Shown here one piece after another: positions 4,001-31,529 of a stretch of 64,000 bases of DNA. The DNA is from an uncultured Clostridia bacterium (GTDB lineage: Bacteria > Bacillota > Clostridia > Oscillospirales > Ruminococcaceae). A program made the translations under genes and the position numbers. Where the stretch lies: the NCBI GenBank assembly GCA_947629905.1, contig CANRFM010000008.1:5811-69810 (forward strand). The letters run 5' to 3'. The notes beneath the pieces are model-generated. The model searched no databases and was not told the DNA's origin. It saw only the letters and a program-made list of their open reading frames with translations. Within the stretch, counting starts at the first letter, position 1. The number at the start of each line of letters is the position of its first letter.

Positions 4001-4003
4001 GTC

Positions 4004-4783: not shown

Positions 4784-4796
4784 AAAGATCGGAGGT

Positions 4797-6102: not shown

Positions 6103-7239
6103 ATGAGGGTACTGATACTGGACACGGATACAGAATATTCCGGACGCTTGCGGCATTATTGCAGCAAACGTTACACACAGCTGCAATTTTCCGTATGTGA
6201 TGATCCGGAAGCAGCCAAAAAGCTGATGCAGGAGTCAGCTTATGATGTTGTTCTGTTCGATGCGGAATTTGACGATATTCAGCCGGAAAGTCTTGCTCCC
6301 CTGCTTGGTCGGTCGGCATTTGCCTATATCTCCGGCACAAATGAGATCGTGAATGACTGTGACACGATCATGAAGTATATTCCTGTTACGGAAATGTTCA
6401 CAAAGATCTGTGCACTGTATGAAAAGAAGCGTAACCGCATTGTCAGACAAAACAAGGACAGCACGGAACAGGAAAAAAAGACGGAGATCATCACTTTCCT
6501 GCCCGTACACGGCGGTGCGGGAAGTTCAACAATGGCAGCAGCCTGTGCTATGTCGCTTTCGGAGGAAGCGGACGTGCTGTACATCGATCTTGAACAGTGT
6601 CCGTCAGATGCTGTGTTCTTTGACGGCAGCGGCAAAAAAGGGATCTCCGACGTGATTTCCCTGCTCAAGACCAGATATACAGATCCCAGCGTGGTCAATC
6701 TGCTTCACGAAGTCATCCAGAAAGATACAAAGCAGAAGAATTATAAAGTGGACTACATCCGGGGCTATGCGAATATTATGGACTGTCTGTCTATGACAGT
6801 ATCCTGTCTTGATACGCTCCTGAGAGTGCTGCGGGAAAAGATGAATTACCGTTTCATCATCATTGATGCGGATCTTATCATCAGTCCGATCCTGAATAAG
6901 CTGATCGCTGAAACAGATAAGCTGGTATTTGTCAGCTCGGGGGCGGATGTTGCCAATAACAAACTCCGGCGGATCCAACGGTATCTGGAGATCCTCGCAA
7001 GGGATGATGCCTGCGAGATGCCGGAAAAATACCTGCTGTTCAACCAGTATTACGGCATGAAGGAAGAACTTACGGTGGCAGGGGATATGGAGATCCTTGC
7101 AAAGATCGCCCGGTATCGGACAGGAGATAAGACACGCATCACTTCGCAGAATATCCTCCGTGAAGTATTGTCCGGCAAGCAGGTCTTTGCCGCTTTGAAG
7201 CCAAAAGATCCTGATGAAGAGGAAACATCTGTACAGTAA
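6103..7239 (+). CDS. TadZ/CpaE-like protein: receiver-like N-domain plus ParA/MinD-like domain with degenerate P-loop
   Basis: N-terminus MRVLILDTDTE...DVVLFDAEF is REC-like. The central FLPVHGGAGSSTMAAACAMS sits where KGGxGK[ST]T is expected. It is positioned directly upstream of cpaF. Confidence 0.6.
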   Translation: MRVLILDTDTEYSGRLRHYCSKRYTQLQFSVCDDPEAAKKLMQESAYDVVLFDAEFDDIQPESLAPLLGRSAFAYISGTNEIVNDCDTIMKYIPVTEMFTKICALYEKKRNRIVRQNKDSTEQEKKTEIITFLPVHGGAGSSTMAAACAMSLSEEADVLYIDLEQCPSDAVFFDGSGKKGISDVISLLKTRYTDPSVVNLLHEVIQKDTKQKNYKVDYIRGYANIMDCLSMTVSCLDTLLRVLREKMNYRFIIIDADLIISPILNKLIAETDKLVFVSSGADVANNKLRRIQRYLEILARDDACEMPEKYLLFNQYYGMKEELTVAGDMEILAKIARYRTGDKTRITSQNILREVLSGKQVFAALKPKDPDEEETSVQ

Positions 7240-7256
7240 GGCGGTGATGAAACAAG

Positions 7257-8639
7257 ATGAAAATGAATATTGTGATCGATGAGGTCGTCAAGGAGATCTG
7301 CCATGCGATCGATCACGGCGAATTTATGGAAGAGGAAAAAGCCGACGCACAGGGGTTTGAAAAGATCAAGAACAAGGCGGAAAATGTTCAGGCAATACGG
7401 GAATCGGATGATGAGACGTACCGTTCCTACATATGGAAGATACTGGACAGGATACTGGACGAAAACGGAGATTACAAAGCTTCGGATGGTTCCATGGTCT
7501 ACATCATGCCGGAGGACAAGGCAAGGATCGTAGAGCAGGTATTCGGTATGTACCGTGGACTGGGGCTTCTGGACACGCTGCTGATGGATGAGGAGATCAC
7601 GGAGCTGATGGTCAATGGACCGGACAATATCTTCGTGGAGAAAAAAGGACGTGTCATCCGTCTTGATCAGCGTATCTGCAACGATACCGACTGCTCGGAA
7701 GAAGAACGTTTTGAGCGGGGGCGTGTGCAGCTCCGGAAGATCATTCACCGTATCGTGGACATCTGCGGCAGAGAGGTCAACGAGGCTAACCCGATCGTGG
7801 ATGCCCGTTTGAAAGACGGTTCCCGTGTCAATATCGTGCTGCACCCCATTGCCATGTGCGGCGATACCGTGACGATCCGTAAATTCTCCAAAAAGCCCAT
7901 GAGCATCGAACGGCTGATCGCCTACGGTTCGATCACTGAGGAGATCGCCATGAAGCTGAAAATGCTGGTCGGTGCGAAATACAACATCTTCATCAGCGGC
8001 GGTACGGGCAGCGGTAAGACTACCTTCCTGAATGCTCTGTCCAACTACATTCCTCACGATGAACGTGTTATTACCATTGAGGACTCCGCTGAGCTGCAGA
8101 TCACAGGCGTGGACAACTTGGTCAGCCTTGAGACAAAGCAGGCAAATGCAGAGGGCAAGGGTGCGATCACGATCAAAGACCTGATCAAATCCTCCCTGCG
8201 AATGCGTCCGGAACGGATCGTTGTCGGAGAGGTGCGTGGCGAGGAAGCGCTGGATATGCTGCAGGCGATGAATACCGGACATGACGGCTCGCTGTCTACC
8301 GGTCACGCCAATTCTGCCAAAGATATGCTTACCCGTCTGGAAACCATGGTGCTGCAGGGGGCTTCCGGCCTGCCGCTGGATGCTGTGCGAAGGCAGATCG
8401 GTTCGGCGCTGGACATCATCGTCCACCTGTCAAGAATGCGTGACCACTCCCGGAAAGTGGTAGAGATCACAGAAGTGCTTGGCTATGAAAAGGGAGAGAT
8501 CATTCTCAATCCGCTGTATGTGTTCGAGGAGGATAAGGATTCCACACTGGAACACGTGAAGGGCGGTCTGATGCGTACGAAAAATATCATGCAGAACACC
8601 GGAAAGCTCCGTCAGGCGGGCATTCCGGAGGATCTGTAA
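7257..8639 (+). CDS. cpaF: Tad pilus secretion ATPase CpaF/TadA (type II/IV secretion NTPase)
   Basis: Walker A is [16 protein letters not shown], Walker B region is [11 protein letters not shown], with [15 protein letters not shown] and [13 protein letters not shown]. Confidence 0.9.
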
Positions 8640-8658
8640 CAGATCGGAGGGATGAAAA

Positions 8659-9501
8659 GTGAAGAAAAAAGATAAACAAGATACAAAACCGGCAAAGCCG
8701 AAAAAGGAAAAGAAGGTCAAGGAGAAAAAGCCGCAAGTTGTCGAAAATCATGGCATTACCGGTATCGGTACGGACTATACTGTCTACATTCTCAGCCGCA
8801 GTCAGAAATTGCTTGCTCTGGCAGCCGGGCTGCTGATCGGCTTTGTGGCAAGCTACATCTATCTAAACAATACGATCGTGAGCATACTTGTCGGGCTGGT
8901 TGCTGCCTACAAAGCACCTGCGATCTATACGAACATCTTGTTCCGGAAACGGCAGCAGGATCTGCGTGTCCAGTTCCGGGATATGCTCGAATCGCTGAGT
9001 AACTCCTACACGGTCGGCATGACGGCAAACCGGGCATTTCATGCAGCGTATTCGGATATGACGGTCGAACATGGACCAGATGCGTGGATCACCAAAGAAT
9101 TACAGCTGATCTGCTCGGCACATGACAATCAGGGTCTCGAGATCAAGGACATGATGAACGATTTCGCACAGCGGAGCGGTATCGATGATGTGCGCAGTTT
9201 TGCAGGCGTATTTGACGTTTCATCCAACCTTGGCGGTGATATTGCAAAGGTCGTTCGTGAGACACGGGACATGATCGGTGATAAGATCGAAGTGGAACTG
9301 GAAATACAGACCATTGTGACAGCACAGAAGAATCAGCTGAACATTCTTGCGGTCATGCCGCTTATCATGTCACTGCTGACACGAACTTTTGAAACCGGAG
9401 GCGGCGGCGGTATGATCGTTGTGCTGCTCAAACTGGCAGCACTGGGACTGTTCGTCTTTGCCTATTGGATGGGTACAAAGATCGTAGATATCAAAGTCTG
9501 A
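8659..9501 (+). CDS. tadB: TadB-like inner-membrane platform protein (T2SS-F family)
   Basis: GTG start 6 nt after GGAGGG. TM helices are present, along with the GGDIAKVVRETRDMIGDKIEVELEIQTIVTAQKNQLNILAVMPL pattern typical of TadB/GspF-type proteins. Confidence 0.75.
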   Translation: MKKKDKQDTKPAKPKKEKKVKEKKPQVVENHGITGIGTDYTVYILSRSQKLLALAAGLLIGFVASYIYLNNTIVSILVGLVAAYKAPAIYTNILFRKRQQDLRVQFRDMLESLSNSYTVGMTANRAFHAAYSDMTVEHGPDAWITKELQLICSAHDNQGLEIKDMMNDFAQRSGIDDVRSFAGVFDVSSNLGGDIAKVVRETRDMIGDKIEVELEIQTIVTAQKNQLNILAVMPLIMSLLTRTFETGGGGGMIVVLLKLAALGLFVFAYWMGTKIVDIKV

Positions 9502-9512
9502 GAGGTGAGCGT

Positions 9513-10412
9513 ATGTTTTTTATCATGCTGTTGTGTGCAGTGATCTCAACGATCTGTTTTGTGGTGTGGGTAATGCTGTTTCTGCGTTACCGGCATCAGT
9601 TTGACGGAATGCTGGACGATGTGGACGAAAAGACCTTTACACTGAAAAACCTGTATTTCATCGGTCTTGGCTTCATTGAAAGCTATGAGCATATCAAAAA
9701 CACGAAGATCACCGCCAATGAAAAGGCAATCGAAAGAATGAAGTATCTTTCCGAAGTTTTCGGACGGGAAGAAGCGGAGTTATATTACTATATATCGACA
9801 GGGGCAACGATCTCACTGATCCTCACATTTGTGCCGATTGGTCTAATGCTCACCTGCCTTCTGCAGAGCTTTTCCGGACTGTTGTGCGGTGTGCTTCTTG
9901 CAGCAGTTTTACCATATGGTATCCATTTAAGTATCAATTCGGCTGTGGATGCCAAGAAGGATGCCATTCTCAGTGAATTTCCAAAAATGGTGTCCAGACT
10001 GACACTGCTCATCAATGCAGGGATGCTTGTGCGCCGTGCGTGGGATGAGGTCGCTAACTCCGATCATAAGGAGAAGCTGTATGCCGAGATGCGCATAACT
10101 TCCAAGGACATGCAGGAAGGTATGTCCATTGAAGCAGCCATGAATGCCTTTGCATCCCGCTGCGGCATACGTGAAATGCGAAAGTTTTCTTCTATTTTTG
10201 TTCAAGCTGTCAATCGTGGAGCGGCGGATTCGATCGAGTCCATGAAAATAATGGCAGACGAGGCATGGGAACAGAAAAAGCAGATATCCAAACAAAAGGG
10301 CGAGGCAGCTTCCGGAAAGCTCATGATCCCCAATATGATCATGTTTGCCGGGATCCTGCTTGTTGTGGTCGCCCCAATGATCATTACTATGGTCACAAAT
10401 TTTTCGGCGTGA
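9513..10412 (+). CDS. tadC: TadC-like inner-membrane platform protein (T2SS-F family)
   Basis: ATG at 9513 follows GAGGTGAG. Motifs EFPKMVSRLTLLINAGMLVRRAW and AWEQKKQISKQKGEAASGKLMIPNMIMFAGILLVVVAPMI are present. The track ORF start at 9465 overlaps tadB. Confidence 0.75.
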   Translation: MFFIMLLCAVISTICFVVWVMLFLRYRHQFDGMLDDVDEKTFTLKNLYFIGLGFIESYEHIKNTKITANEKAIERMKYLSEVFGREEAELYYYISTGATISLILTFVPIGLMLTCLLQSFSGLLCGVLLAAVLPYGIHLSINSAVDAKKDAILSEFPKMVSRLTLLINAGMLVRRAWDEVANSDHKEKLYAEMRITSKDMQEGMSIEAAMNAFASRCGIREMRKFSSIFVQAVNRGAADSIESMKIMADEAWEQKKQISKQKGEAASGKLMIPNMIMFAGILLVVVAPMIITMVTNFSA

Positions 10413-10427
10413 AAGGAGGTGAAATAT

Positions 10428-10661
10428 ATGCTCGATAAGGTTTTGAACAAGGTCTGCCGTGCATTTCTCAAAGCCAGAAACAAATTTATGGAGCTGGCAA
10501 ATGAGGAAAGCGGTATGGAAACGGTCGAAGTCGTTATTCTGGTTGCGATCGCTGTAGTAGTAGCTGGTGTCATCCTTGACTTTTTGCAAGGTGACAAAGG
10601 TTTCATCAATACAATCTTTACTAAAATTGAAACTGCGATCGGAACTATGCTTGGTGTATAG
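10428..10661 (+). CDS. flp: Flp-family (type IVc) prepilin
   Basis: AGGAGG-N8-ATG. The protein is 77 aa with a basic leader, then ESG|METVEVVILVAIAVVVAGVIL (Gly cleavage site, Glu at +5, hydrophobic helix). Confidence 0.8.
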   Translation: MLDKVLNKVCRAFLKARNKFMELANEESGMETVEVVILVAIAVVVAGVILDFLQGDKGFINTIFTKIETAIGTMLGV

Positions 10662-10689
10662 CCAACATAACTGAAACAGTAGTTCCAAA

Positions 10690-10727
10690 GCCAGCCATCC
10701 TACCATGCCGGATGGCACGGCTTTGTA
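10690..10727 (+). terminator. Imperfect hairpin plus T-rich tail after flp (candidate attenuator)
   Basis: gcc-a-gccatcc ...ggatggc-ac-ggc followed by tttgtat. A second perfect 8-bp hairpin cggcagaa-tt-ttctgccg lies at 10731-10748. Confidence 0.35.
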
Positions 10728-10789
10728 TACGGCAGAATTTTCTGCCGCATGCAAAACCGTAAAAATTATAAAGAAAGCGGGGAAAGATC

Positions 10790-11506
10790 ATGAAGAGAAT
10801 GCGTAAATTTCTGAGGGATGAAAGCGGTGCGGCGGAAATGATAGAAGCTGCTTTTGTCTATCCAGCCGTGTTTCTGTGCCTGTTTCTGCTGATCTATATT
10901 GGACTTTTTATCTTGCAGTCCATTACAGTGGGGACGTACGCACGAAAACTGGCGCTGCTGGCATCGAGGGAGATCGCCTGTCCGGGCTACATAGATATGT
11001 GTATGTATAAGGACGAGAAAGGCGCAGATGTAAGTGCCTTTTCCGATGCATCTGTGGAACTGGCATCGGGGTCAGGTGTCGGTCCCAGCACAAAACCGTC
11101 AACGGTGGATGCACGGCCCTATCGCTATTTCACGTCCAATCTGCTTGACGATGCGACAAACCAACAGCTGGAAAAGGTGGCACGCCAATTGCTGGCAAAA
11201 GGGTCGATCCTTGCGGGAAAAGGAAATGCGACCATAGAAGTGAAGGCGAAGAATTATTTCATCGTGCAGTATGTGACGGTGAGTGTCAAGCAGCCGCTGA
11301 TGGATTTCCCGCTGCTCAAAGCATTCGGTGTCAATCCGACTGTGCAGGCGAGTGCCACAGCAGCCGTAAATGACACGGATGAGTTTGTACGAAATGTGGA
11401 TTTTGTCGCAGATGCCCTGCAGGTGCTTGCCAAAAAGATCGGCATCAATGTGGATGCTATCAAGGATAAAGTCAACGAAGCCATGACAACGCTCAAATTA
11501 AAATAA
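10790..11506 (+). CDS. TadE-like pseudopilin/minor pilin 1
   Basis: N-terminus RDESGAAEMIEAAFVYPAVFLCLFLLIYIGLFIL is a TadE/TadG-type hydrophobic N-terminus. Confidence 0.65.
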   Translation: MKRMRKFLRDESGAAEMIEAAFVYPAVFLCLFLLIYIGLFILQSITVGTYARKLALLASREIACPGYIDMCMYKDEKGADVSAFSDASVELASGSGVGPSTKPSTVDARPYRYFTSNLLDDATNQQLEKVARQLLAKGSILAGKGNATIEVKAKNYFIVQYVTVSVKQPLMDFPLLKAFGVNPTVQASATAAVNDTDEFVRNVDFVADALQVLAKKIGINVDAIKDKVNEAMTTLKLK

Positions 11507-11517
11507 GGAGGTACGAA

Positions 11518-14500
11518 ATGGAACTGATCAGATCACATAAGGGCGCCATCTCAATTTTCTTGATCATCATGCTGCTGCCAATGGTAACGTATGCAACGAT
11601 CATCATTGACGGGGCGAGGGTCATCACTTCCCGAACGACGATCGCCAATGCAGGCGACCTTGCCATGAATGCGGCACTGTCGGAGTATGAACAGACACTT
11701 GAAGATATGTACGGGCTGTTTGCTACGGCAGCTTCCGAGGAAGATCTGAAAATGCAGCTCAAATCCTACTTTGCACAGACCCTTGAGGGAAGATTCTACA
11801 ACGGTCAAAGAGGGGACTACAGTACCCAGCAGCTGACAGATGATGTTATCGATGCGATCTTCCAATATGAGGAAGACAGCCAAGGCATTGCGAATTTCAT
11901 TCAGATGAAAACGGAAGAATTTGACTTTTCTCCTGTGCAGAATTCCTCGCTGGCAAATCAGGCGATCATGAAACGGCAGATCGTGGAGTACATGAAGTAC
12001 AAAGGACCGGTCTCGCTGGCGAGCAACTTGTTCAGCAAGCTGGATTTTCTGAAAGATTCTGCCAGCCAGACAGAAGTTCTGGAGAAGAAAGTCGAATACA
12101 CAGAGAAGCTCGACACCATTCAGGATGCCTGCGAAGCAGCGCTGCAGGCTCTGAACGATTACAATAGTGCAGCAAAAGACTATAACGATACATATGGCAA
12201 AGGAAAAGGCAAAGTCAAAACGATCATTGACAACATGAAAAAAGATTACCAGTATATGTCCGCCTGCCTGCTCATGGAGAAAAGCTCAGAGCTTGAGACG
12301 TTTTCATGGGATGATCTGGATATAACGGAAGATAAAGATGTGAACGATATCAACAGTACGCTCGATCAGATCGAACAGAATCTGACAGCAGAAGAGCTCA
12401 CACGGCAGGATCTGCATGAAATGTTATCCATACTGAAGGTTACCTATGAAAACAGTATCAAATCAGGTTTGATGCGGGGGCTAATGAAAGTGGACATCCA
12501 AGAAGCTCAGGTAGATCCGACAACACAGGAACGTCCCTACCCGACCATTGATCTCATCATAGAGAGCGAAAAACAATATGATGATACCAATGTGCCCTAT
12601 CAGGATCGTCTTGACAATTATGTAAAAGATCTGAATAGCATCTCGCAAGTCGACCGTGCAAATGGCGAGGTCTATGTGCAAGCATTGGAGGAACATTTCC
12701 AGAAACTGAATGAAGCAAATCAATTTGCAAAGGGGGCAGAAGGTTATCTCATCAAGATCAGGGCGACCTATAGAATACTGGAACGTCTGAACTCGTTATA
12801 TAGCAGTATTTTTTCGAGCTATGCACACAAGTATGAATCAGATTATGAAGCAACGTTTAGAAAGTATAATGAAAATGCCAGTGACAAGGATGTAGAAGAC
12901 GCACTGAATGCGGCAAAGAAAAACTGGACGAATATTCAGGACACGAACAATCCATACAACGAATTTATAAGCGAATATTATGAGTTTGATCGGGGGAATT
13001 ATGAGATCAACACTGTGTTTAGTAAATTAAATAACAGTAGCTACGCCAGAAGTGTCAGTGATTTTCTTAAAAAGGTAAGTGATGACAGTATTTACGAGAA
13101 CAGTGCAGATTTTTATGCCGCAAGAGCTGCAGAGGACATCACCGCCTATTATAACTGCGTTGCGGACGTTGCGGCAAAAGCCTTCGCATCCAATTACTAT
13201 TTGGGTGAAGTCATAAAAAAGCTTAAGGATGCGGAAAATGCAAAAAACGACTGGCAGGATAAAGTCAACGGTCTCCCATCCGGCAGTACCAAGACTGCCA
13301 TGCAGAGTGACCTGAAATCAACCACCGAAGGACTCAAAAAGTCAGATGTTGAAGCGCTTCAGAAAGTGATGAAAGGCATTTATGACCTGTTTTCCAAAAA
13401 GAAAAAAGAGATCTTAGATACTGAAATTCAAAAAGGTGTTCAGTTTTGCGGTCTCTCACCGATCAATGTCAAAAAGAGCGGTCCATTTCTAAAAACTGCT
13501 CCATTTTCAAATATATCTAAATTGACCAATGTGAGCGATGTAAACAATATTGCGGCATCACTGGTGGATACTAAACTGCAGATGTCAGAAGATATTGAAA
13601 ACGAGATCGAGGCGAAAATAATCTATGGCATCCAAAATGACGAAAAGTTTTTCCTCACGCTGAAAAGCATCTGCGAACCTTACAAAACGGAAGAAAAAAA
13701 TACAAAGCAGGATGAAGCTATGGACAAGGTCAAACAGATACGTGATGATGCGCAGAAAGAAGCAAAGAAAAGTGATACCACGACAGAACAGAAAACGCCT
13801 GAAAGTGAGACACCAAAAGGCGATGACAGCGGCGGCGATAACAGCGGTGGCGGCGATAACAGCGGCGGCAGCGGTAACAGCGGCAGCGATGGCGACAATA
13901 CCAAAGAAGATAAAGCAGTAAGTAAAGACATCGGTAAAATTTATGAAACGATCGATAGCGTTGCCCAAGCGGGAAACAGTTCGGACAGTATGGAAATGTC
14001 GGGCATATCGAACATGACGTTCGAAAAGAAAGATGACTACAAAGAGGATTCCGGTAATGCCAAAACTGCTTTGACATCGGCACAAAACCTGCTGTCTTCT
14101 CTGAAAAATATCGCTGTGAAGGCAAGAGACTACGCCTATCTGGAAGAATATTTCACAGAAATGTTCACCTGCCGCACATTTACATCCGATGAGCTGATCA
14201 ATAAAAAGCCTCAGGAATTGATGCTGCTCAACGGTTATTCTCCTACTGTTAAAGGGAACAAACACATCAACACCAAAACCAACTGGTACGGCAAAGAGAT
14301 CGAATACATCATCTGGGGTAATCCGGATCTGAATAAGAATCTGGATTACACGGATGCATGGATCTATCTTGTCCGGTTCGCACTCAATGCGATCTACGCT
14401 TTCACATCGTCGGATATCCAGATGGTAGCCCTTGAAATGGCAACAGCTATCGCAGGGTGGACAGTCGTAGGTGTCCCCATTGTACAGGCGTGCATCACGC

Positions 14501-15741: not shown

Positions 15742-15752
15742 GGGGGCGCACT

Positions 15753-17329: not shown

Positions 17330-17339
17330 GTCTGGAGTG

Positions 17340-18659: not shown

Positions 18660-18670
18660 GAGATAAGGAT

Positions 18671-20023: not shown

Positions 20024-20037
20024 AAGGGGGAGTAACA

Positions 20038-21710: not shown

Positions 21711-21785
21711 AAAATGGGCGTGAGAGCATGGATCATAGCGTAATTTCAAAAACAGAGATCCATGAGGATCCATAGGGAGAATAGT

Positions 21786-22571
21786 ATGATCGAAAATCAA
21801 ATATACAGGTCACAGCATGATACCGTCTACGTGTCTGTCTATTCTGCCATTGGCGATAGAGAGAATCAGGAGGATTCTTATTTGATATGCAGCAGTGAGA
21901 ATGCGGTCCTTGCTGCGGTCTGTGACGGAATGGGCGGCAGAAAAGGCGGCGAGATCGCAAGCAAAACTGCCATTTCAGGGCTGAAAGAACATTTTGACGG
22001 CACGTTGTACCGGGACAGCTCTTTTTTTACGGATATTGTAGATGAACTGGATGCAAGAGTATTTTTTTTGACGGATCAGAGTAAAAGAAGACTGCACGCC
22101 GGGACAACACTTGCTTCTGTCACGCTCAATAACGGCAGTCTCGATTGGTTTTCAGTTGGTGACAGCCGTATCTATATCATGAGAAACGGGGAAACTATAC
22201 AAGCTACCAGAGATCATAATTATAAAGAAATGCTGATCGATCTGCTGCAGCGGGGGAACATTACAAGGGAGCAATTTGAAAAGGAAAAGAATAAACACGC
22301 TGCATTGACAAGTTATCTTGGGATCGGCGGTGTCAAATTATATGATATCAGCATCACACCATTGGTTCTGAAAGACGGTGACCTGATCATTGTGTCTACT
22401 GACGGATTTTACAATGCCGTGCCAATGGAACAGATCGCAGCTATGGGCAGGAAAAGCACAGATGAGATCATTCATGCGGTCGCAGAGATCTGGGAAGGCA
22501 GCGAAATGTCTGGCAGAGATAATACGACTTGTATTATCATCAAATACTGTGTGGAGGCAGATGAAAAATGA
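21786..22571 (+). CDS. PP2C-family Ser/Thr phosphatase 2
   Basis: GGGAGA lies upstream of the ATG at 21786 (the track ORF starts at 21762). Motifs are QEDSYLI, VCDGMGG, GDSRIY, TRDHN, VSTDGF and RDNTTCIII. Confidence 0.85.
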   Translation: MIENQIYRSQHDTVYVSVYSAIGDRENQEDSYLICSSENAVLAAVCDGMGGRKGGEIASKTAISGLKEHFDGTLYRDSSFFTDIVDELDARVFFLTDQSKRRLHAGTTLASVTLNNGSLDWFSVGDSRIYIMRNGETIQATRDHNYKEMLIDLLQRGNITREQFEKEKNKHAALTSYLGIGGVKLYDISITPLVLKDGDLIIVSTDGFYNAVPMEQIAAMGRKSTDEIIHAVAEIWEGSEMSGRDNTTCIIIKYCVEADEK

Positions 22572-23392
22572 GATTGACGAAATGTGAGAATAAACATTTT
22601 TACGATGCTGACAAGTATGACGAATGTCCGCATTGTGCAAGAAAAAAAGCAGCCAAATCGGGGACTCCGGCGCAAACAAAAAATACTTCACAAAAAACGG
22701 TCGCATTGATCCAAGACACGACAATGACGGGTACACGGGAAGAGAACAAGCCGTACCCACAGCCCGACCTGCCCGCTCCCGGTGCGGATGAAAAACCGCC
22801 GCATCCCAAAATTACAACACAGCTATTGGAACCGCATGAGCCCTCTCCTTCCGACAATGCAGAGGACACTTCCGCTGAGGCAGACAGGCATGATCCATCG
22901 GCAGAGGAAGAGAATGCTGCTGCCTCACAGGATGCATCTGATCTGGCACAGGCGGTTGCTTCATCCAGTATGTCGGTCCATACGGGAGCGGCCGCCAATG
23001 CAAGCCAAAAGACAGTAGCATTTTATGATGTCGGCGGGGTCGATCCGGTCGTAGGGTGGTTAGTTTGTGTGATCGGGGAATATGTCGGTGAATGCTTTAA
23101 CCTGAAGGCAGGTCAGAATTTTATCGGAAGATCCTTGAGTATGGATGTTGCACTGATCAATGAAAAAAGTGTGTCGAGGGAATTTCATGCCGGGATCATA
23201 TTTGACCCGAATGCAAAGCAGTTTTTTGCAGTACCGGGGCAAAGCAATGGATTGACCTATATCAATGGGCAACTCTTATTTTCTGCTGTCCCGCTGAAAT
23301 CCTATGATAAGATCCAGCTGGGAAAAAGCACATATATTTTCATGGCTTTTGCCGGAAATGATTTTATGTGGGATACTTATTTAGGAAAGTGA
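22568..23392 (+). CDS. FHA-domain protein 2 with N-terminal zinc-ribbon-like motif
   Basis: N-terminus is KCENKHFYDADKYDECPHC, followed by a P/A/E-rich linker. The C-terminal FHA reads FIGRSLSMDVALINEKSVSREFHAGII...SNGLTYINGQLL. Confidence 0.8.
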   Translation: MRLTKCENKHFYDADKYDECPHCARKKAAKSGTPAQTKNTSQKTVALIQDTTMTGTREENKPYPQPDLPAPGADEKPPHPKITTQLLEPHEPSPSDNAEDTSAEADRHDPSAEEENAAASQDASDLAQAVASSSMSVHTGAAANASQKTVAFYDVGGVDPVVGWLVCVIGEYVGECFNLKAGQNFIGRSLSMDVALINEKSVSREFHAGIIFDPNAKQFFAVPGQSNGLTYINGQLLFSAVPLKSYDKIQLGKSTYIFMAFAGNDFMWDTYLGK

Positions 23393-23396
23393 TAGA

Positions 23397-25361
23397 ATGA
23401 TGATAAAGTGTTACAATTGTTTCAAAGACTATGATGATGCAAACGCAGAGTGCCCCTACTGCGGTCATATACCGGGATCTGTAAAAAGAGAAGTCAATCA
23501 TCTCCCGCTGGGAAGTATCCTGATCGACCGGTATCTGATCGGAGAGGTCTGCGGCTTCGGCGGTTTTGGCGTGACTTATAAGGCATGGGATATGCAGCTT
23601 GAGGCGATCGTTGCTGTCAAGGAATATTTTCCGAATGGTGCTGTCAACAGAGTTCCCGGCACGGAAGATGTTGTGCTTTTCAGTGGAAATCGTCTGAAAG
23701 AATTTCATTTTGGATTGGTGCGTTTCATAGAAGAAGCCAAAATAACTGCGAAATATGTGTCACATAAAAACATCGTCAATGTATATAATTATTTTGAAAC
23801 CAATAAAACGGCATATATTGTCATGGAATATCTGGATGGGATAACACTGGAAAATTATTTGCAGCAGTTTGAAGACGACGGAGAAAGGATCGATATCGAT
23901 ACGGCTGTTGATATTACGCTGAATGTCTGCAATGCACTGAAAGCGATCCATGCAGACAATGTGATCCACCGGGATGTGAGTCCGGATAATATCTTCATAT
24001 GTTTCAATGGTACGTATAAGCTGTATGACTTTGGCGCTTCCAGATTTTCTCAGAATGAGGATCAGCATTTGACGATCATCCTGAAACCCGGCTATGCGCC
24101 GCCGGAGCAATATGAAAAGGTAAACACACAGGGACCATGGACGGATATTTATGCCTTGGGGGCAACGCTCTACAAAATGTTGACAGGCGTAAAGCCGGTC
24201 GAATCTATGAACCGGAAGATCGTTGATGAACTTCAGGAACCGAAGGAACTTGTTCCCGATATTCCGCAGTATCTTAACGATGCTGTCATGAAGGCAATGG
24301 CAGTGGAACAGCATTTGAGGTTTCAGAAAGTCGAAGAATTTGAGGCTGTCCTAAAAAAAGAAAGACCTGTAGAAGCGGTCAAGACCACCATAAAAAGAAA
24401 AAAGAGGAGAAGAATATCCGGTATCTGTGCAGCTGCAGCGATCGTCCTGACAGGATCAGGGATCTTAGCCTATAACTTGCTGCAGCAAAAGGAAGAAAAC
24501 ACGCTCCCTGCTGCATCGATCGATGTCTGGTATATCGCTGACAGTGATGAATTAACGGGAGCATTAGAAGACATCAAGGATGAATTTTGCAGCAGCTATG
24601 AAGGCGTTTCGGTCAATTATATTGCCATTGAACCGGACGAGTACGATGAGCGCCTCAGCGAAGCGGCACAGGCAGGCAATATGCCTGCGCTGCTGCAAAG
24701 TGATCTGATCGATACAGCCAAATACAGCTTTCTTTCATTAGAGCCTGTCATGGAGGAGATCGATCTGGATAACTACTATATTCTGGGCGACCAGCAAGCT
24801 CAGATCCTTGCGGATAATAAATTGCCGCTGGGTTTCAATATACCGCTGTTTTATATGAATACGACGCTATCCGGGTATTCTGGGGATCCTGTTTCAGAAT
24901 TAAAAGAGATCGCATCTGATGACAGCATGATCGCTGTTGCCCCTCAAACAGAAACTGTATTCCAGAAACTGTTTGGTGGTTATACGTATCAGTCAGCCAC
25001 TTGCGAGCAGTTTTTGGCAGGAGAAGCAGCTTTTTTGTTTTCAGATACAGCGCAGTTTTATGATGTACAGGAAGCACTTCCTGCCAGATTTAAGATGGTA
25101 AAGCTGGGGATAGATGAAGTGCCCTGTACGCTTTGCAATTGTTGGAGCCTTGGTGATTGCGGAGATGAGAAAAAAGAAAAAGTCGCAAGGCGGTTCCTTG
25201 CCTATATGCTGAGTGATAACTCACAGGACTATCTTTTTATCCGGTATAAGGAGCCGGGACTTCCTGTAAATCGAAATGCTCTGGGTGTATATGAGGATGT
25301 CTATCTGGAATTTGAATCCGTCATTTCACCTTCGGAGCAGTATGTATTTGAGCAGAAATAG
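23397..25361 (+). CDS. Hanks-type kinase 2: zinc ribbon, kinase domain, TM, solute-binding-protein-like ectodomain
   Basis: Motifs are CYNCFKDYDDANAECPYCG, GFGGFGVTYKA, VAVKEY, IHRDVSPDNIF and YDFGASR. The TM is ISGICAAAAIVLTGSGILAY. The ectodomain reads IDVWYIADSDELTGALEDIKDEF...AAQAGNMPALLQSD (SBP family-1-like). Confidence 0.8.
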   Translation: MMIKCYNCFKDYDDANAECPYCGHIPGSVKREVNHLPLGSILIDRYLIGEVCGFGGFGVTYKAWDMQLEAIVAVKEYFPNGAVNRVPGTEDVVLFSGNRLKEFHFGLVRFIEEAKITAKYVSHKNIVNVYNYFETNKTAYIVMEYLDGITLENYLQQFEDDGERIDIDTAVDITLNVCNALKAIHADNVIHRDVSPDNIFICFNGTYKLYDFGASRFSQNEDQHLTIILKPGYAPPEQYEKVNTQGPWTDIYALGATLYKMLTGVKPVESMNRKIVDELQEPKELVPDIPQYLNDAVMKAMAVEQHLRFQKVEEFEAVLKKERPVEAVKTTIKRKKRRRISGICAAAAIVLTGSGILAYNLLQQKEENTLPAASIDVWYIADSDELTGALEDIKDEFCSSYEGVSVNYIAIEPDEYDERLSEAAQAGNMPALLQSDLIDTAKYSFLSLEPVMEEIDLDNYYILGDQQAQILADNKLPLGFNIPLFYMNTTLSGYSGDPVSELKEIASDDSMIAVAPQTETVFQKLFGGYTYQSATCEQFLAGEAAFLFSDTAQFYDVQEALPARFKMVKLGIDEVPCTLCNCWSLGDCGDEKKEKVARRFLAYMLSDNSQDYLFIRYKEPGLPVNRNALGVYEDVYLEFESVISPSEQYVFEQK

Positions 25362-25420
25362 AAACAAGAGACAGCGGTTGTAACAGAAACGCATGATCAT
25401 TGTTTCGGTAAGGAGAAAAA

Positions 25421-28400
25421 ATGAAAAAATTCTGTATGGGCTGTATGGAGCAGTATGATGAAGAATTTGAAGTATGTCCATTTTGCGGGTATGTAGATGG
25501 GACAACGGATGAAGATGCATTACATATCACGCCCGGAGAGATCCTGCATGAACGGTATATCGTTGGAAAAGTGATCGGTTTCGGGGGCTTTGGCGTTACT
25601 TATATCGGATGGGATGCTCTTTTAGAGCATAAGATCGCAGTAAAGGAATATATGCCCAGTGAGTTTTCAACAAGAGCCATGGGCACAAAAGAGGTAACTG
25701 TTTTCGGCGGGAAGAAGACCGAACAATTCAACAGCGGTCTGAAAAAATTCCACGAAGAAGCACACAAGCTTGCAAAATTCAACACGGATGATGGTATCGT
25801 GCGTGTTTATGATACATTTGAGGAGAACAACACCGCATACATCATCATGGAACTGTTAGAAGGGCAGACTTTAGCTTCGTACCTCCAGCAGGAAGGTAAG
25901 ATCCCCTATGAAAAGGCGGTCTCTATCATCCTGCCGATCGCACAGGCATTGAAGGATGTCCATGCTGCCGGTGTGATCCACCGTGATATTGCCCCGGACA
26001 ATATTTTTCTGACAAAGGATGGAAAAGTAAAGCTGATCGATTTTGGTGCGGCACGTTTTGCAACCACATCTCACAGCCGAAGTCTGTCCGTTCTGATCAA
26101 GCAGGGCTACTCACCGGAAGAACAGTACAGAAGCCGGGGAGATCAGGGCGCTTATACAGATGTATATGCTTTAGGTGCTGTGCTCTATCGGATGATCACC
26201 GGTGAAACACCGCCGGATGCTTTGGAACGCCGTGCTTTTTTAGAAAACAAGAAGAAAGATATTCTGCTCCCGATCACGAATTTTGCGAAAGATGTGCCAG
26301 AAAATATACAGGCAGCAATTTACAACGCAACAAATGTGCGCATTGAGGACCGCACACAGTCAGCGGATGAACTGATCGAAGAACTGACAACAGATCAACC
26401 GGTAAAACGGAAGAAAGGGAAGATCAAGGCAATAGATTTTCTGCGGTGGCCTTTATGGGCTAAGATCACTTTCCCCTCTCTTGCGGTACTGGTCATCACA
26501 TTGAGTGTATTATTTGCAACCGGCGTGATCGGATTTAAGAATTTTATCAAAGAAAAGATCTATGTCCCGGAGGGAATGGCAAGAGTTCCCTCGATCGTTA
26601 GTTCCAATATAGAAAGCGCAGATGACAGATTAGAAAAAGCAAATTTGCTGTACAGCATTTCCGGAAAAGAATATTCTTCGCTGATAGATGCCGATCTGAT
26701 ATTGTCTCAGAGCGTCAGCGGCGGCTCAGTAGTCTTACAAAATACGATCATCGACCTTATCATCAGCGGCGGTGCTGAAACGGCAGCCGTTCCGAATATT
26801 ATCGGAATGCCCCAAGACAGCGCAGCAGCGCTATTGGAAGAGTCAGGATTTCTGTACAAGATCGAATATGAATTCAGTGAAGCGATCGCAGAAGGCGGCA
26901 TCATCCGTCAAAGCGTTGCGCCGGATTCGGATTATCCGGTCGGCAATGAGATCACCATAACGGTCTCTAAAGGAAGAGATCCGGATCAGGAATATGAAGA
27001 GATCATGGTAAGTGTACCTGATTTTACAGGTCTGACCTATGATGAGGCATTAAAACTTGCGCAGGAACATCAGCTAATCATTATTGCAAAAGAAAAGGCT
27101 TACAGTGCTGAATTTGCAAAAGATACCGTAATGGGGCAAAGTGTTACGGCAGGCTCTGAGATCCTGAGCGGCAATACTGTGGAGCTTACTGTTTCACTTG
27201 GTATCCATATTATCAAGATCCCGGATGTGGTCTATAAAACAGAACAGGATGCCGTTAAAATACTGGAGGGGAACGAATTAAAGGCAAGCATCACCTATGA
27301 GAACAGTGAAACGATCAAGGCTGGACTTGTCATTTCGCAATCCCCCGGCAATGGCGCTGAAGCTTCCGCCGGAGATACCGTTACACTGGTCGTAAGTAAA
27401 GGCGGTACTGCTTTCAATATGCCCAATGTGGTTGGCATGGATGAAAACAGCGCCCGCACACTTTTAACGGGAAAAGGACTGTCGGTAACGGTCGCTTACG
27501 AATACAGCACCTCCACAGCTGCGGGCAATGTTCTGAAACAGAGCATTTCCGCAAATAGTTCTGTCAATCTCGGAACAGCCGTTCAGATCACCGTAAGCAG
27601 CGGAGAGGAACTCCTACAGGTCGCCAATGTCGTTGGCATGGCACAGAAAGATGCGGCAAACGCATTGAAAAATCAAGGCTTTACAGTTAAGGTCAATGAA
27701 AATTACAGCGAAACTGTAGAAAGCGGCAAGGTCATCAGTCAGTCACCGGAAGCAGGCTCCTCTCAGATCAAGAACACCATTGTTCTGTTGACAGTAAGCA
27801 AGGGCAAAGCTCCCATTGAAGTTCCGGATGTGACCGGTGTATCTCAGTCAAACGCTGAGTCTACAATGAAAGCCCTGAAACTTAACGTGAGCATTACAAA
27901 AGAATACAGCGAAACTGCCAGCTACGGCTCTGTCATTTCTCAAGATCCTCCTGCCGGTTCAAAAGCATACAGCGGCGATACGGTCAAACTTGTGATCTGT
28001 AAAGGAAGAGAGCCGGTCACGATCCCGAATGTAGTCGGGATGGACAGTGACACAGCCGCATCAAAGCTTGCAGACCTTGGATTTGTTGTGACCACGACAA
28101 AGCAATACAGTGACAGTGTAGCATCCGGGAAAGTCATTTCTCAATCGCCGGAAAGCGGCACGGGCTACAAGAACGATACGATCAGAATCGTAGTAAGTAA
28201 AGGAAAGTCCCCGGTCGCTCCTTCTGCCATCACTTTAGATCAGTCGAGTGTGACGCTGTATGTCGGCAGGATCAATTCCGCAGCGCAGCTCAGCGCAACA
28301 ATAACGCCGTCTAATGCAAGTGATAAAACGGTATCCTGGACTTCAAGCGACGAAAAGATCGCTGCTGTGACCTCAAATGGTTTTGTTTCCGCTGTAAGCG

Positions 28401-29731
28401 CAGGCACTGCTACGATCACTGCTGTGACCAATACAGGCGGGAAAAAGGCAGTATGTACAGTAAAAGTAATACAGCCCACGCTTACTCTTGATGTTTCGGG
28501 TGCAAATGTAACTGCCGGGATCAGTTACACGATCCAATGTACCTATAGTCCCACAAGCCAAAATATTACATGGAGCTCAAGTGATCCCAATGTGGCGAAA
28601 GTGGATAATGGAAAAGTTACCGCTGTTTCCCCCGGTGAAGCTGTGATCACTGCGGTCTCTGATTACGGCGTTTCCGCTTCATCCCAGATAACGGTAGAGG
28701 AAAGCGAGATATTCTCTTTTGACAAAACAAGTTTTTCGATCGTCGAAGGGGAAAAGGTCAACATCGGTTTGCACGTTGATGCACATGGTGTACTCAATGG
28801 CAGCAAGGGAGAGACAACTATCACCCCAACGGTCACAATGGCTTCTTCCTCCATTGCTGCATTCCAGCTATCCGGGAATAACGGTTACATCCAAGGCATA
28901 ATACCGGGTGAAGAAACACTCAGTTTCTCCTGCTGCGGAAAAACGATCCCGATCCGTTTAACTGTCCGGGCAAAATCGGTCTCAGAGATCTCTGTACTTT
29001 CCGGTCCGACCAAGGTCGATTATGAAAAAGGCGATACTTTAGATACTACAGGTCTTGTTTTGGATGTAAAATACGATAACGGAACATCCGAAACAGTAAA
29101 TTCCAATATTTCCTGTGATCCAGCCATACTGGATCAAGTCGGAACACAGGTAATAACCGTAGAGTATGGCGGCAAACAGACCACATTCACTGTAAATGTC
29201 AAGGAGAGCAGCTATGCAGCAGGAAATTGCGGTGATACCTGCTATTGGAAATTAAACAAAGCAAGCGGCGAACTGACCATCAGCGGAACAGGGCAAATGC
29301 AAACAAGCGCTTATGGTTATCCATGGGATGACTATAAAAACCTGATCACATCTGTAATTATAGAGGAGGGAGTAACTGCACTGGGCGATTATGCCTTTGT
29401 AGACTGTACCAAAATAACAAATGTCGCCTTTCCTGATTCTTTGAAGGGGATCCCAGAAGGTGCATTCCAAAATTGCATGGGATTAACTGCCATTACATTA
29501 GGTCCCAATATTGAATATATCCGAAGTGAAGCATTTATTTTCTGTCCCTACCTTGTCAACATCACAATACAAAATCCAACGTGTGATATAAGCGATACAT
29601 TCATTGCTAATTCGTATAAATATTACGGGACGGATGTTTATGTCATGGATCCGGTCATTTATGGATATTCCAATTCGACCGCCCAGCAGTTTGCGGATGC
29701 TTGCGGTTACACATTCAGTGCTTTAGACTAA
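25421..29731 (+). CDS. Hanks-type kinase 3: zinc ribbon, kinase domain, TM, about 8 PASTA repeats, Ig-like (Big_2-type) domains, LRR-like C-terminus
   Basis: Motifs are CMGCMEQYDEEFEVCPFCG, GFGGFGVTYIG, IAVKEY, IHRDIAPDNIF and IDFGAAR. The TM is AKITFPSLAVLVITLSVLFATGVIGF. There are eight ~65-aa units of the type VPNVVGM..D.A...L...GF......YS..V..G.VISQSP..G. Ig-like units such as ITPSNASDKTVSWTSSDEKIAAV follow. The C-terminus is BspA-type LRR-like (VTALGDYAFVDCTKITNVAFPDSLKGIPEGAFQNC). Confidence 0.85.
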   Translation: MKKFCMGCMEQYDEEFEVCPFCGYVDGTTDEDALHITPGEILHERYIVGKVIGFGGFGVTYIGWDALLEHKIAVKEYMPSEFSTRAMGTKEVTVFGGKKTEQFNSGLKKFHEEAHKLAKFNTDDGIVRVYDTFEENNTAYIIMELLEGQTLASYLQQEGKIPYEKAVSIILPIAQALKDVHAAGVIHRDIAPDNIFLTKDGKVKLIDFGAARFATTSHSRSLSVLIKQGYSPEEQYRSRGDQGAYTDVYALGAVLYRMITGETPPDALERRAFLENKKKDILLPITNFAKDVPENIQAAIYNATNVRIEDRTQSADELIEELTTDQPVKRKKGKIKAIDFLRWPLWAKITFPSLAVLVITLSVLFATGVIGFKNFIKEKIYVPEGMARVPSIVSSNIESADDRLEKANLLYSISGKEYSSLIDADLILSQSVSGGSVVLQNTIIDLIISGGAETAAVPNIIGMPQDSAAALLEESGFLYKIEYEFSEAIAEGGIIRQSVAPDSDYPVGNEITITVSKGRDPDQEYEEIMVSVPDFTGLTYDEALKLAQEHQLIIIAKEKAYSAEFAKDTVMGQSVTAGSEILSGNTVELTVSLGIHIIKIPDVVYKTEQDAVKILEGNELKASITYENSETIKAGLVISQSPGNGAEASAGDTVTLVVSKGGTAFNMPNVVGMDENSARTLLTGKGLSVTVAYEYSTSTAAGNVLKQSISANSSVNLGTAVQITVSSGEELLQVANVVGMAQKDAANALKNQGFTVKVNENYSETVESGKVISQSPEAGSSQIKNTIVLLTVSKGKAPIEVPDVTGVSQSNAESTMKALKLNVSITKEYSETASYGSVISQDPPAGSKAYSGDTVKLVICKGREPVTIPNVVGMDSDTAASKLADLGFVVTTTKQYSDSVASGKVISQSPESGTGYKNDTIRIVVSKGKSPVAPSAITLDQSSVTLYVGRINSAAQLSATITPSNASDKTVSWTSSDEKIAAVTSNGFVSAVSAGTATITAVTNTGGKKAVCTVKVIQPTLTLDVSGANVTAGISYTIQCTYSPTSQNITWSSSDPNVAKVDNGKVTAVSPGEAVITAVSDYGVSASSQITVEESEIFSFDKTSFSIVEGEKVNIGLHVDAHGVLNGSKGETTITPTVTMASSSIAAFQLSGNNGYIQGIIPGEETLSFSCCGKTIPIRLTVRAKSVSEISVLSGPTKVDYEKGDTLDTTGLVLDVKYDNGTSETVNSNISCDPAILDQVGTQVITVEYGGKQTTFTVNVKESSYAAGNCGDTCYWKLNKASGELTISGTGQMQTSAYGYPWDDYKNLITSVIIEEGVTALGDYAFVDCTKITNVAFPDSLKGIPEGAFQNCMGLTAITLGPNIEYIRSEAFIFCPYLVNITIQNPTCDISDTFIANSYKYYGTDVYVMDPVIYGYSNSTAQQFADACGYTFSALD

Positions 29732-29821
29732 AAGCGATCCCGATGCAGTTCCCGGCAGTTTTGAGCCTTGTGGAGACAAAAGACAGTTTGTCCTGTCAGA
29801 TATTATGAGAAGATCGGCACA

Positions 29822-31526: not shown

Positions 31527-31529
31527 CAT

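Follow-up and report, generated by a model that had tools for sequence, protein, structure and literature searches.

Tad pili drive colonization, biofilm formation and contact-dependent behavior, and to our knowledge essentially nothing is known about the post-translational control of these pili in Gram-positive bacteria. The question is raised by a locus of an uncultured Clostridia bacterium (Oscillospirales; Ruminococcaceae), in which the genes of a Tad/Flp pilus run directly into a block of Hanks-type Ser/Thr kinase (STK), PP2C phosphatase and FHA-domain genes: does this block control the pilus machine, or does it stand beside it for another reason? The locus occupies positions 6103-29731 of a stretch of 64,000 nucleotides (contig CANRFM010000008.1 of assembly GCA_947629905.1, positions 5,811 to 69,810), hereafter the window. 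The reading favored here, with a probability of roughly 0.55, is that the Tad machine would be gated by a dedicated switch composed of a kinase, a PP2C phosphatase and a pseudokinase-FHA adaptor. An earlier examination of the letters of the window, the original prediction, had proposed such a coupling and supposed it to be undescribed. The full-text literature searched, which covers few subscription journals, agrees on the latter point: a Tad-STK-PP2C-FHA system of Bacillota is nowhere described in it and the family DUF5702 nowhere mentioned, and a preprint atlas of bacterial STK does not mention pili.

The arrangement of the genes provides the first part of the answer. A listing of the open reading frames (ORFs), combined with Pfam searches, bears out seventeen consecutive genes on the + strand, with a TadZ-like gene first and a PASTA kinase gene last. 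In gene order, the junctions measure +17, +19, +11, +6, +128, +11, +11, -1, +7, +11, +14, -4, +51 (+75 if the second Met is taken), -4, +4 and +59 nucleotides. All of them therefore fall between -4 and +19, except for the 128 nucleotides after flp, the 51 or 75 before the second PP2C gene and the 59 before the last kinase gene. The junctions of the signaling module (17329/17337-40, 18659/18671 and 20023/20038) are tight. The cluster ends in an intrinsic terminator (29812-29853, +), formed by a hairpin at 29812-29843 with a 13-bp stem and 8 GC pairs, followed by CTTTTCTTTA. The terminator scan retrieves this hairpin as the sole strong one on the + strand, as had been predicted, with 29822-29862 as the position first given for it. 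The same scan detects no terminator-like site on the + strand in the intergenic gaps within the cluster. The counts of promoter-like and terminator-like sites in the cluster do not exceed those of shuffled sequences; a single operon is neither proven nor disproven.

The core of the signaling module follows the prepilin peptidase gene. Its first gene (17337-18659, +) encodes a single-pass membrane protein with TPR and WG (KWG) beta-repeats (Pfam WG_beta_rep 1.4e-35, TPR_19 2e-6). A simple hydropathy scan places its transmembrane (TM) segment at residues 1-29, and the TPR/WG repeats are probably extracellular. Next come the adaptor FHA1 (18671-20023, +; Pfam DUF6382 1e-14, FHA 4.5e-14), the conserved phosphatase partner PP2C1 (20038-20823, +; Pfam PP2C_2 3.2e-11) and the Hanks kinase STK1 (20820-21710, +; Pfam Pkinase 5.3e-26), a protein of 296 residues with a variant HCD/DLS catalytic signature. 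The same scan detects no TM segment in STK1, in FHA1, in the second FHA protein (FHA2) or in either PP2C.

Two surveys of related loci, designated here by L numbers, indicate how far this arrangement extends. The first was anchored on FHA1 and retrieved 40 homologs, all with DUF6382 and FHA domains; the contigs of nine loci, with 24-54% identity, were examined. All nine contain, in this order, T2SSE, TadB, T2SSF, Flp, a protein of about 240 residues, the DUF5702 giant, one or two unknown proteins, Peptidase_A24, WG_beta_rep, DUF6382-FHA and PP2C. A Pkinase gene follows the PP2C gene except in L009, whose contig stops just past the FHA gene. Scanning metagenomes with the FHA alignment as anchor added 10 further loci with the same arrangement; the scan covered 10 close relatives, a sample that does not extend to DUF6382 proteins of the type VII secretion system (T7SS) type. 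Wherever the contig includes upstream DNA, the FHA-anchored loci (9 + 10) are all in the Tad arrangement, and the FHA protein is never found beside unrelated genes.

The second survey was anchored on the DUF5702 giant, with one genome per GTDB species and six-frame ORFs labeled with profiles of the window proteins. Tad loci account for 66 of the 72 loci retrieved. By record title, the carriers belong to Oscillospiraceae, Ruminococcus, Acutalibacteraceae, Lachnospiraceae, Erysipelotrichaceae, Peptococcaceae and metagenome-assembled genomes of Bacillales/Bacillota; the cultured carriers among Erysipelotrichaceae are Thomasclavelia saccharogumia DSM 17460 and T. cocleata DSM 1551. In the 42 evaluable loci, which have at least 9 kb of DNA downstream of the giant gene, the WG protein and the DUF6382-FHA protein are present in 42/42, a Hanks kinase in 40/42 and a PP2C in 32/42. 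The locus of T. saccharogumia (L060) keeps the same order with overlapping junctions, and its Pfam matches run through TadE-like, A24, TPR+WG, DUF6382+FHA, PP2C and Pkinase.

The synteny thus supports a set of FHA, PP2C and Hanks proteins wired to a Gram-positive Tad apparatus, as the original prediction had proposed, and no evaluable relative carries this type of Tad locus without the block. The unit of three kinases, two PP2C and two FHA proteins that had been put forward needs to be reduced, since the conserved core consists of the WG/TPR protein, the DUF6382-FHA adaptor, usually a PP2C, and one kinase. On this gene-order evidence, the coupling between Tad and kinase genes is conserved and no local accident. 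The alternative of a chance adjacency between a Tad operon and a housekeeping cluster of PASTA kinase, PP2C and FHA genes draws on the near-universal occurrence of PP2C-PASTA kinase pairs in Bacillota and on the lineage-specific character of the four distal genes of the window. However, the linkage is kept in at least five families, the junctions are tight or overlapping both in the window and in T. saccharogumia, and there are no housekeeping neighbors of the RodA/PBP or rsmB/rlmN type. Chance adjacency is therefore extremely improbable and effectively refuted by the synteny survey.

What could the conserved adaptor do? FHA1 comprises a DUF6382 domain (residues 1-185), a disordered linker (about 188-350) and an FHA domain (355-450). 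It was modeled with AlphaFold2 from a 32-sequence alignment of database proteins; the DUF6382 domain reaches a pLDDT (predicted local distance difference test) of 90.5 and a pTM (predicted template modeling score) of 0.87, and the FHA domain is also modeled with confidence. The best Foldseek match of the DUF6382 model in the PDB is the N-terminal domain of TraF from the type IV secretion system (T4SS) of pIP501 (8cba, E 2.4e-4, template modeling score 0.57). It is followed by the YukC/EssB pseudokinase of T7SSb (6z0f, E 9e-4; 9qks) and then by bona fide kinases, with a sequence identity to EssB, YukC and TraF of 7-12%. Inspection of the consensus of the DUF6382 alignment by eye, without a systematic scan, shows no HRD, DFG or VAIK motif. 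With moderate confidence, the domain is thus modeled as a compact pseudokinase fold of the EssB/YukC/TraF type, and the description of FHA1 as a plain FHA protein has to be given up; the family also occurs in T7SSe and T7SSf. TraF was lately shown to be a structural homolog of YukC, whose pseudokinase dimer binds the FHA domains of YukB/EssC (PMC13037476).

The fusion of this domain to an FHA domain is a property of the family. An exhaustive search with the DUF6382 domain yielded 814 clusters (50% identity, E <= 1e-3), and 111 of 112 full-length representatives end in an FHA domain, with a TM-like stretch in 1/112. By Foldseek against the PDB and by sequence, the FHA domain of the window protein is closest to GarA/OdhI (30-33% identity), and its Foldseek matches also include the FHA domain of ArnA, a regulator of the Sulfolobus archaellum. 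In GarA/OdhI and DgcB, the FHA domain binds a phospho-Thr motif of its own protein (PDB 2kfu, 6hc1). The linkers carry a conserved basic/amphipathic patch KKKGLFGGLFSS.KKKK and, as candidate motifs of this sort, [GE]TT[VI]L repeats; T-x-x-(I/L) is the classical pattern of FHA ligands. The linker of the window protein has three T-x-x-L motifs (GTSLI, GTILL and ATILL, at about residues 310, 337 and 353). Across linkers, T-x-[VIL]-[LIM] is found about 17-fold above shuffles (1.73 versus 0.10 per linker); two or more copies occur in 32/55 locus proteins and in 62/111 database representatives, and 83 of the 111 representatives that end in FHA have at least one motif of the T-x-x-L type.

The enzymes of the module keep their catalytic residues. 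In a set of 45 kinases, STK1 plus one from each of 44 related loci (the kinase encoded first downstream of the FHA gene), the catalytic Lys is kept in 45/45, the HRD Asp in 44/45, the Asn in 44/45, the DFG Asp in 45/45 and the APE Glu in 45/45. STK1 itself has all of these residues (K38, D122, N127, D140 and E165). The metal-binding motifs of PP2C1 (D20, DG(M)GG, GDxR, DG and DN) are kept in 37-39 of 39 orthologs. This conservation of the catalytic residues implies that both enzymes are under selection. In most loci, the conserved kinase has 560-590 residues and is built of a kinase domain, a single TM helix and an ectodomain of about 270 residues that is helical and TPR-like, and in others the ectodomain is PASTA-type or beta-propeller-like. 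The soluble kinase of the original prediction is right for STK1 but not for the type, which in most relatives is a receptor kinase.

The partner of the adaptor is suggested by loci in which the order is changed. Three rearranged loci retain the FHA gene beside tadZ/cpaF: L044 (PP2C, TadZ, FHA, CpaF ... WG, STK, PP2C, STK-PASTA), L050 (WG, TadZ, FHA) and L078 (Pep, STK, WG, TadZ, CpaF, FHA, PP2C). The pairwise identity matrices of CpaF and DUF6382 are correlated (r 0.86, with 0/500 permutations as high). Among secretion systems, DUF6382-FHA proteins (TseJ/TsfJ) and PPM phosphatases (TseF/TsfF) are components of T7SSe and T7SSf (Garrett et al. 2024, PMC11217815); T7SSe adds the kinase TseD, and T7SSf has TsfV, a TadZ-like ATPase with an atypical receiver domain (ARD). 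TadZ and CpaF are the favored partners because the FHA gene stays beside theirs in the rearranged loci, and because members of this adaptor family occur in T7SSf together with a protein that has a TadZ-like ARD.

These observations also bear on the possibility that the signaling genes are only co-expressed with the pilus genes and act elsewhere, on wall remodeling, on pilin expression in the manner of archaeal ArnA/ArnB, or on an adhesin. PASTA kinases classically control cell-wall homeostasis, Big_3-like giants of 2200-3300 residues lie just past the kinase in many relatives, and the FHA domain has its structural match to ArnA. On the other hand, the FHA gene moves together with tadZ/cpaF, the pairing in T7SSf points to a partner at the level of the machine (PMC11217815), and Pfam finds no DNA-binding domain in the signaling module. 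A target outside the pilus machine is accordingly regarded as improbable.

For the favored reading, a gated Tad machine, the following sequence of events is proposed. A membrane receptor kinase would sense an envelope or surface cue, in most relatives through its helical TPR-like ectodomain; in the window, the sensors would be the added kinases with SBP-like (solute-binding protein) and PASTA/Ig/LRR (leucine-rich repeat) ectodomains, with the soluble STK1 perhaps downstream of both. The kinase would subsequently phosphorylate the Thr of the T-x-x-L repeats in the adaptor linker, and possibly also Tad platform proteins. The FHA domain of the adaptor would read the phospho-Thr in cis or in trans, with GarA/OdhI and DgcB as precedents, and this reading would alter the conformation or the oligomeric state of the adaptor. 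Its pseudokinase domain could then dock on the cytoplasmic face of the machine, with TadZ/CpaF as the likeliest partner, and the docking would license or localize pilus assembly, in a way comparable to the hub of EssB pseudokinase and EssC FHA domain in T7SSb. The PP2C would reset the switch, and PP2C2, FHA2, STK2 and STK3 would form a lineage-specific extra layer of input. Phospho-gating is what we infer from these arrangements, and the licensing by cell-wall, solute or surface cues that had been suggested is speculation.

Several points weigh against this reading. The phosphate-binding Ser of the GarA pocket (SRRHA) is replaced by Gly, and the Arg by His, in FHA1 and its close clade (GHRHA), so that the reading of phospho-Thr is possibly weakened in the window protein. 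T-x-x-L motifs are missing in about a quarter of the adaptor homologs. The Foldseek support for the DUF6382 fold is moderate (template modeling scores of about 0.5-0.57, E of about 1e-4 to 1e-3). STK1 is the lone kinase among the 45 with DLS for DFG, an atypical soluble short form. Within the sequence covered, a PP2C is absent in 10/42 loci and a kinase in 2/42. The correlation between the CpaF and DUF6382 matrices could equally be caused by shared species phylogeny. Finally, the surveys were anchored on the DUF5702 or FHA protein, and their scope is that of Tad loci with at least one of these.

The main rival is a phospho-independent scaffold. In this reading, the pseudokinase-FHA protein would serve the Tad machine as a structural hub that binds its partners without phosphothreonine, as EssC FHA domains bind EssB in T7SSb, and only a minor or different part would fall to the kinase and the phosphatase. 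The altered GHRHA pocket and the dispensability of PP2C in ten loci fit such a hub, and the contact between FHA domain and pseudokinase in T7SSb is reported to be phospho-independent (PMC11217815, PMC13037476). However, the catalytic residues of the kinase are kept in 44-45 of 45 and the kinase itself in nearly all evaluable loci, the T-x-x-L repeats are enriched in the linker, and FHA1 retains the Arg of GR, the His, the Asn and the Thr of the pocket. In addition, the wider DUF6382-FHA family mostly keeps the canonical S-R pocket (57 of the 98 proteins scored). A pure scaffold is considered unlikely.

The comparison with known systems delimits the proposal further. In the H1 type VI secretion system (T6SS) of Pseudomonas aeruginosa, a receptor Hanks kinase, a PP2C and an FHA scaffold (PpkA/PppA/Fha1) are likewise encoded within the cluster of a nanomachine; there the FHA protein is itself a substrate of the kinase, and assembly is gated post-translationally. 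The window locus differs in that the machine is a Tad type IV filament of a monoderm, with no T6SS core domain (TssB/C, Hcp, VgrG or TssM) found, and in that its FHA protein combines a pseudokinase-like domain at the N-terminus with several T-x-x-L repeats. FHA1 scores 33 bits against the NCBIfam TagH/VI_FHA profile, with a cut-off of 120. The window system is an analogue of the T6SS threonine phosphorylation pathway, not a member of it; the pathway is also cited in PMC8460266.

With T7SSe and T7SSf, the locus has in common the DUF6382-FHA adaptor family, the PP2C/PPM phosphatase and a membrane kinase, and with T7SSf also the TadZ-like receiver domain, whereas the partner machine here is Tad. 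The block could hence be taken for a secretion variant of the T7SSe/f type that merely adjoins a Tad locus, since its DUF6382-FHA, phosphatase and kinase proteins are listed as T7SSe/f components and T7SSg and T7SSh always adjoin Tad genes (PMC11217815). In that work, the Tad genes near T7SSg/h are treated as possibly coincidental, and no Tad-kinase-FHA system is described. Against a T7SS stand the placement of the module within the run of Tad genes, past tadV/WG and before the cluster end, and the lack of the T7SS ATPase: there is no ORF of EssC size or FtsK type in the 64-kb window, where the largest ORF outside the locus encodes a 740-residue RNase R, and no EssC/FtsK ATPase in the Pfam-annotated flanks of nine relatives. 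Neither WXG100 nor YukD was noted in the window or in the flanks of the relatives, where small ORFs were not exhaustively scanned. The T7SS explanation was rejected because an EssC-size ORF is missing in the window and in these flanks of relatives, and is very unlikely.

EssB/YukC of T7SSb and TraF of the pIP501 T4SS, the best structural matches of the DUF6382 domain, are bitopic proteins with a TM helix and an extracellular domain, whereas the DUF6382 domain is shorter (about 180 residues), soluble, and joined by a disordered linker to an FHA domain in the same protein. The FHA fold itself is nearest to GarA/OdhI, but the targets of these proteins and of DgcB are metabolic enzymes and a diguanylate cyclase. 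GarA, OdhI and DgcB have a Thr motif (ETTS) or an N-terminal peptide that, once phosphorylated by a Hanks kinase, is bound by the FHA domain of the same protein. The window adaptor differs by its several T-x-x-L repeats, its pseudokinase-like output domain and the replaced Ser of the pocket. The actinobacterial cluster fhaA-fhaB-pstP-rodA-pbpA-pknA-pknB, set in a division or cell-wall context, likewise groups PASTA-type Hanks kinases in a single operon with a PP2C and two FHA proteins. In contrast, the window locus has no FtsW/RodA or transpeptidase domain in Pfam searches and is embedded in a pilus locus, and its PASTA kinase carries Ig-like and LRR modules of adhesin type.

The Kil apparatus of Myxococcus and the Tad system of Bdellovibrio are also Tad-derived machines with loci enriched in FHA-domain proteins. 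These systems belong to diderms and have a secretin, and KilF has a fused FHA domain whereas Pfam detects none in the window CpaF. Their FHA proteins are proposed to act in contact-triggered signaling (PMC8460266; bioRxiv 2026.07.08.737194), and Kil features a CpaF-type ATPase with an N-terminal FHA domain and a short secretin (PMC8460266). Text searches of the two papers return no mention of a Hanks-type kinase or PP2C in tad/kil loci, only histidine kinases in the Bdellovibrio paper, and neither DUF6382 nor DUF5702 in either. Neither the tad locus of Bulleidia extructa (PMC12786226) nor the TANB77 pilus locus (PMC11680825) has the module, and both belong to other Tad subtypes. Judged by its predicted proteins, the window locus is thus a Gram-positive Tad system and not a member of T6SS, T7SS, the actinobacterial fhaA-pknB cluster or Kil.

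The broader proposal, that a widespread Bacillota Tad subtype is obligatorily phospho-gated and shares its set of adaptor, phosphatase and TadZ-like receiver with T7SSe/f, is tentative and held at somewhat under even odds. If true, the pseudokinase-FHA hub would be a general, exchangeable control module of Gram-positive T7SS, conjugative T4SS and Tad, and Clostridia of the gut and rumen would deploy their pili in a signal-dependent way. Independently of this condition, the signaling set is integral to the Tad subtype and conserved in it, with carriers in dozens of species from gut and rumen (Oscillospiraceae, Ruminococcus, Lachnospiraceae, Erysipelotrichaceae), cultured Thomasclavelia strains among them. 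The model also links three Gram-positive machines (T7SS, T4SS and Tad) by a common pseudokinase-FHA architecture. The analysis further offers, in this context, a working role for the little-characterized Pfam families DUF6382, DUF5702 and WG_beta_rep, and a testable model with candidate phospho-sites, a named adaptor and likely partners.

The machine to which the switch would be attached is encoded upstream of the module, on the + strand. The TadZ-like protein (6103-7239) combines an atypical receiver domain and a ParA/MinD-like ATPase domain; its Pfam matches to TadZ-like_ARD (2e-5; 25.3 bits, cut-off 27.4) and AAA_31 are both under the curated cut-off, and it matches the TadZ structure of Eubacterium rectale (3FKQ) over its full length with E 1.2e-26. 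The CpaF/TadA secretion ATPase (7257-8639; Pfam T2SSE 7.5e-56) matches the solved CpaF structures 8rkd/9e24 with E 1.5e-88. The TadB-like inner-membrane platform protein (8659-9501) is multi-TM by hydropathy and without a Pfam match, and the TadC platform protein (9513-10412; its ORF opens at 9465 and the likely start Met is at 9513) matches T2SSF with 5.4e-9. In the related loci that span the upstream region, the TadB and TadC profiles each cross-detect both platform paralogs; the homologs of TadC with 60-100% identity are all T2SSF proteins of the same Tad subtype.

The pilins and their peptidase come next. The Flp-type major pilin (10419-10661, +) has 80 residues and a Pfam match to Flp1_like of 1.8e-5 (24.5 bits, cut-off 33.5); its N-terminus, ...EESG/METVEVVILVAIAVVVAG, corresponds to a class III signal of the G/xxxxE form (cleavage-type signal SG/METVE) followed by a hydrophobic helix. 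A TadE-like pseudopilin of 238 residues (10790-11506, +), with ...DESGAAEMIEAAFVYPAVFL... at the N-terminus and then a TM segment, is found in essentially all related loci, and its L008 ortholog has a weak match to Pfam TadE. The giant TadG-like minor pilin or tip protein (11518-15741, +; 1407 residues; Pfam DUF5702 1.3e-26) starts with a hydrophobic segment of TadE/G type and has 204 homologs at E <= 1e-5, with 1076-1774 residues among the 120 matches listed. A second TadE/F-like pseudopilin of 305 residues (15753-16670, +) carries ...DETGATSIEAVISLTFFML... and then a TM segment; its T. saccharogumia ortholog matches Pfam TadE with 1.4e-4. The TadE/F/G-type proteins of the window are themselves without a Pfam TadE match; their N-terminal motifs and TM segments fit, and the ortholog matches are weak. 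The prepilin peptidase TadV (16670-17329, +; ORF opening at 16520; Pfam Peptidase_A24 1.2e-10) precedes the WG protein. With regard to the RcpA secretin and TadD pilotin, Pfam finds no secretin domain in any locus protein, which is expected in a monoderm and therefore does not count against a Gram-positive Tad system. By its gene content, the locus appears to encode a complete Tad/Flp pilus (type IVc) of the Gram-positive, secretin-less kind and to represent a distinct and widespread Bacillota subtype, whose apparent hallmarks are the giant DUF5702 TadG-like protein, the TPR/WG-repeat membrane protein and the dedicated Ser/Thr signaling set.

The 128-nucleotide gap between flp and tadE (10662-10789, +) is structured, with an RNA folding energy of -42.2 kcal/mol (z -4.24 versus shuffles). 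It contains stable hairpins without a U-tail, and a gap after flp is also present in relatives. These predicted hairpins could be an element for transcript processing, stabilization or attenuation that sets the ratio of pilin to machinery.

The four distal genes are a lineage-specific addition, as PP2C2, FHA2 and the SBP and PASTA kinases occur in a subset of lineages, sometimes upstream of tadZ. PP2C2 (21762-22571, +; Pfam PP2C_2 3.1e-14) belongs to the extra PP2C that are limited to close relatives such as L004, L010, L012 and L090. FHA2 (22568-23392, +; Pfam FHA 2.8e-7) has an N-terminal Cys-rich zinc-ribbon-like motif and aligns to the FHA domain of Bdellovibrio DgcB, with GR and SR..H kept and a one-residue insertion. 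The pair of FHA2 and kinase is also present in L004, L010, L012, L034, L053, L057, L058, L065, L090 and L091; pairs of an FHA2-like protein and a zinc-ribbon kinase flank the Tad core on one side or the other in at least 10 related loci. STK2 (23397-25361, +; Pfam Pkinase 2.1e-37) is a receptor kinase with a zinc-ribbon-like N-terminus, a kinase domain, a TM segment at about residues 339-362 and a partial SBP-like ectodomain (SBP_bac_8 4.8e-8, partial). STK3 (25421-29731, +; Pfam PASTA 6.8e-113 in 8 stretches, Pkinase 8.9e-38) has the same order, with the TM segment at about residues 345-376 and an ectodomain of 8 PASTA, Big_2, Big_3 and a BspA-type LRR (LRR_5). Of the two ectodomains assigned beforehand, the PASTA one is robust and the SBP match is partial. 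The Cys-rich zinc-ribbon-like starts lie at 22568-22660 in FHA2, 23397-23470 in STK2 and 25421-25500 in STK3, with CxxC...CxxC in the two kinases.

Further large proteins accompany the family. In place of the four distal genes, several lineages carry behind the kinase two ORFs of about 150-240 residues and then a Big_3-like giant of 2200-3300 residues (L003 14257-21443, L006 14961-21509, L007 14291-21731 and L008 14435-21932), a candidate adhesin or cargo of the system. Six DUF5702 giants have no Tad genes nearby (L029, L030, L032, L047, L054 and L072). They have about 1200 residues (864 in L072) and lie at about 10000-13600 in L029, L032 and L047; the context, given by Pfam for L032, is a PG_binding_1 protein, the giant, MscS and RadA. 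Their candidacy as counter-examples was rejected, as they are orphan paralogs in a housekeeping context.

Upstream of the locus, the window begins with the C-terminal part of a CarboxypepD_reg protein (1-873), homologous (E about 3e-39) to an unknown protein of 774 residues whose gene comes directly after that of the kinase in L001 and L002, the closest relatives. The window protein is possibly an associated surface protein, relocated to the other side of the locus. Four tandem genes at 1037-4783 encode single-TM proteins of two alternating paralog types, in which the first and third are identical at 170/276 aligned residues and the second and fourth at 193/275, with (T/P)EAPTE repeats in each. 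These proteins are essentially empty in Pfam, with one sub-threshold DUF6541 match, and have no counterpart beside the Tad loci of the relatives. Just upstream of tadZ, a transglutaminase-core protein with a type I dockerin (4692-6065) suggests a cellulosome-bearing, Ruminococcus-like host. Elsewhere in the window, a periplasmic-binding-protein-type sensor is fused to a GGDEF diguanylate cyclase (52155-54128), without an established link to Tad, and the remaining genes are housekeeping (RecA, RNase R, citrate synthase and others). Right past the terminator of the cluster, phage terminase, portal and capsid genes occupy 30270-34491 and the GC content rises from about 0.45 to 0.58; this region looks like a prophage remnant or an element resembling a gene transfer agent that abuts the Tad locus.

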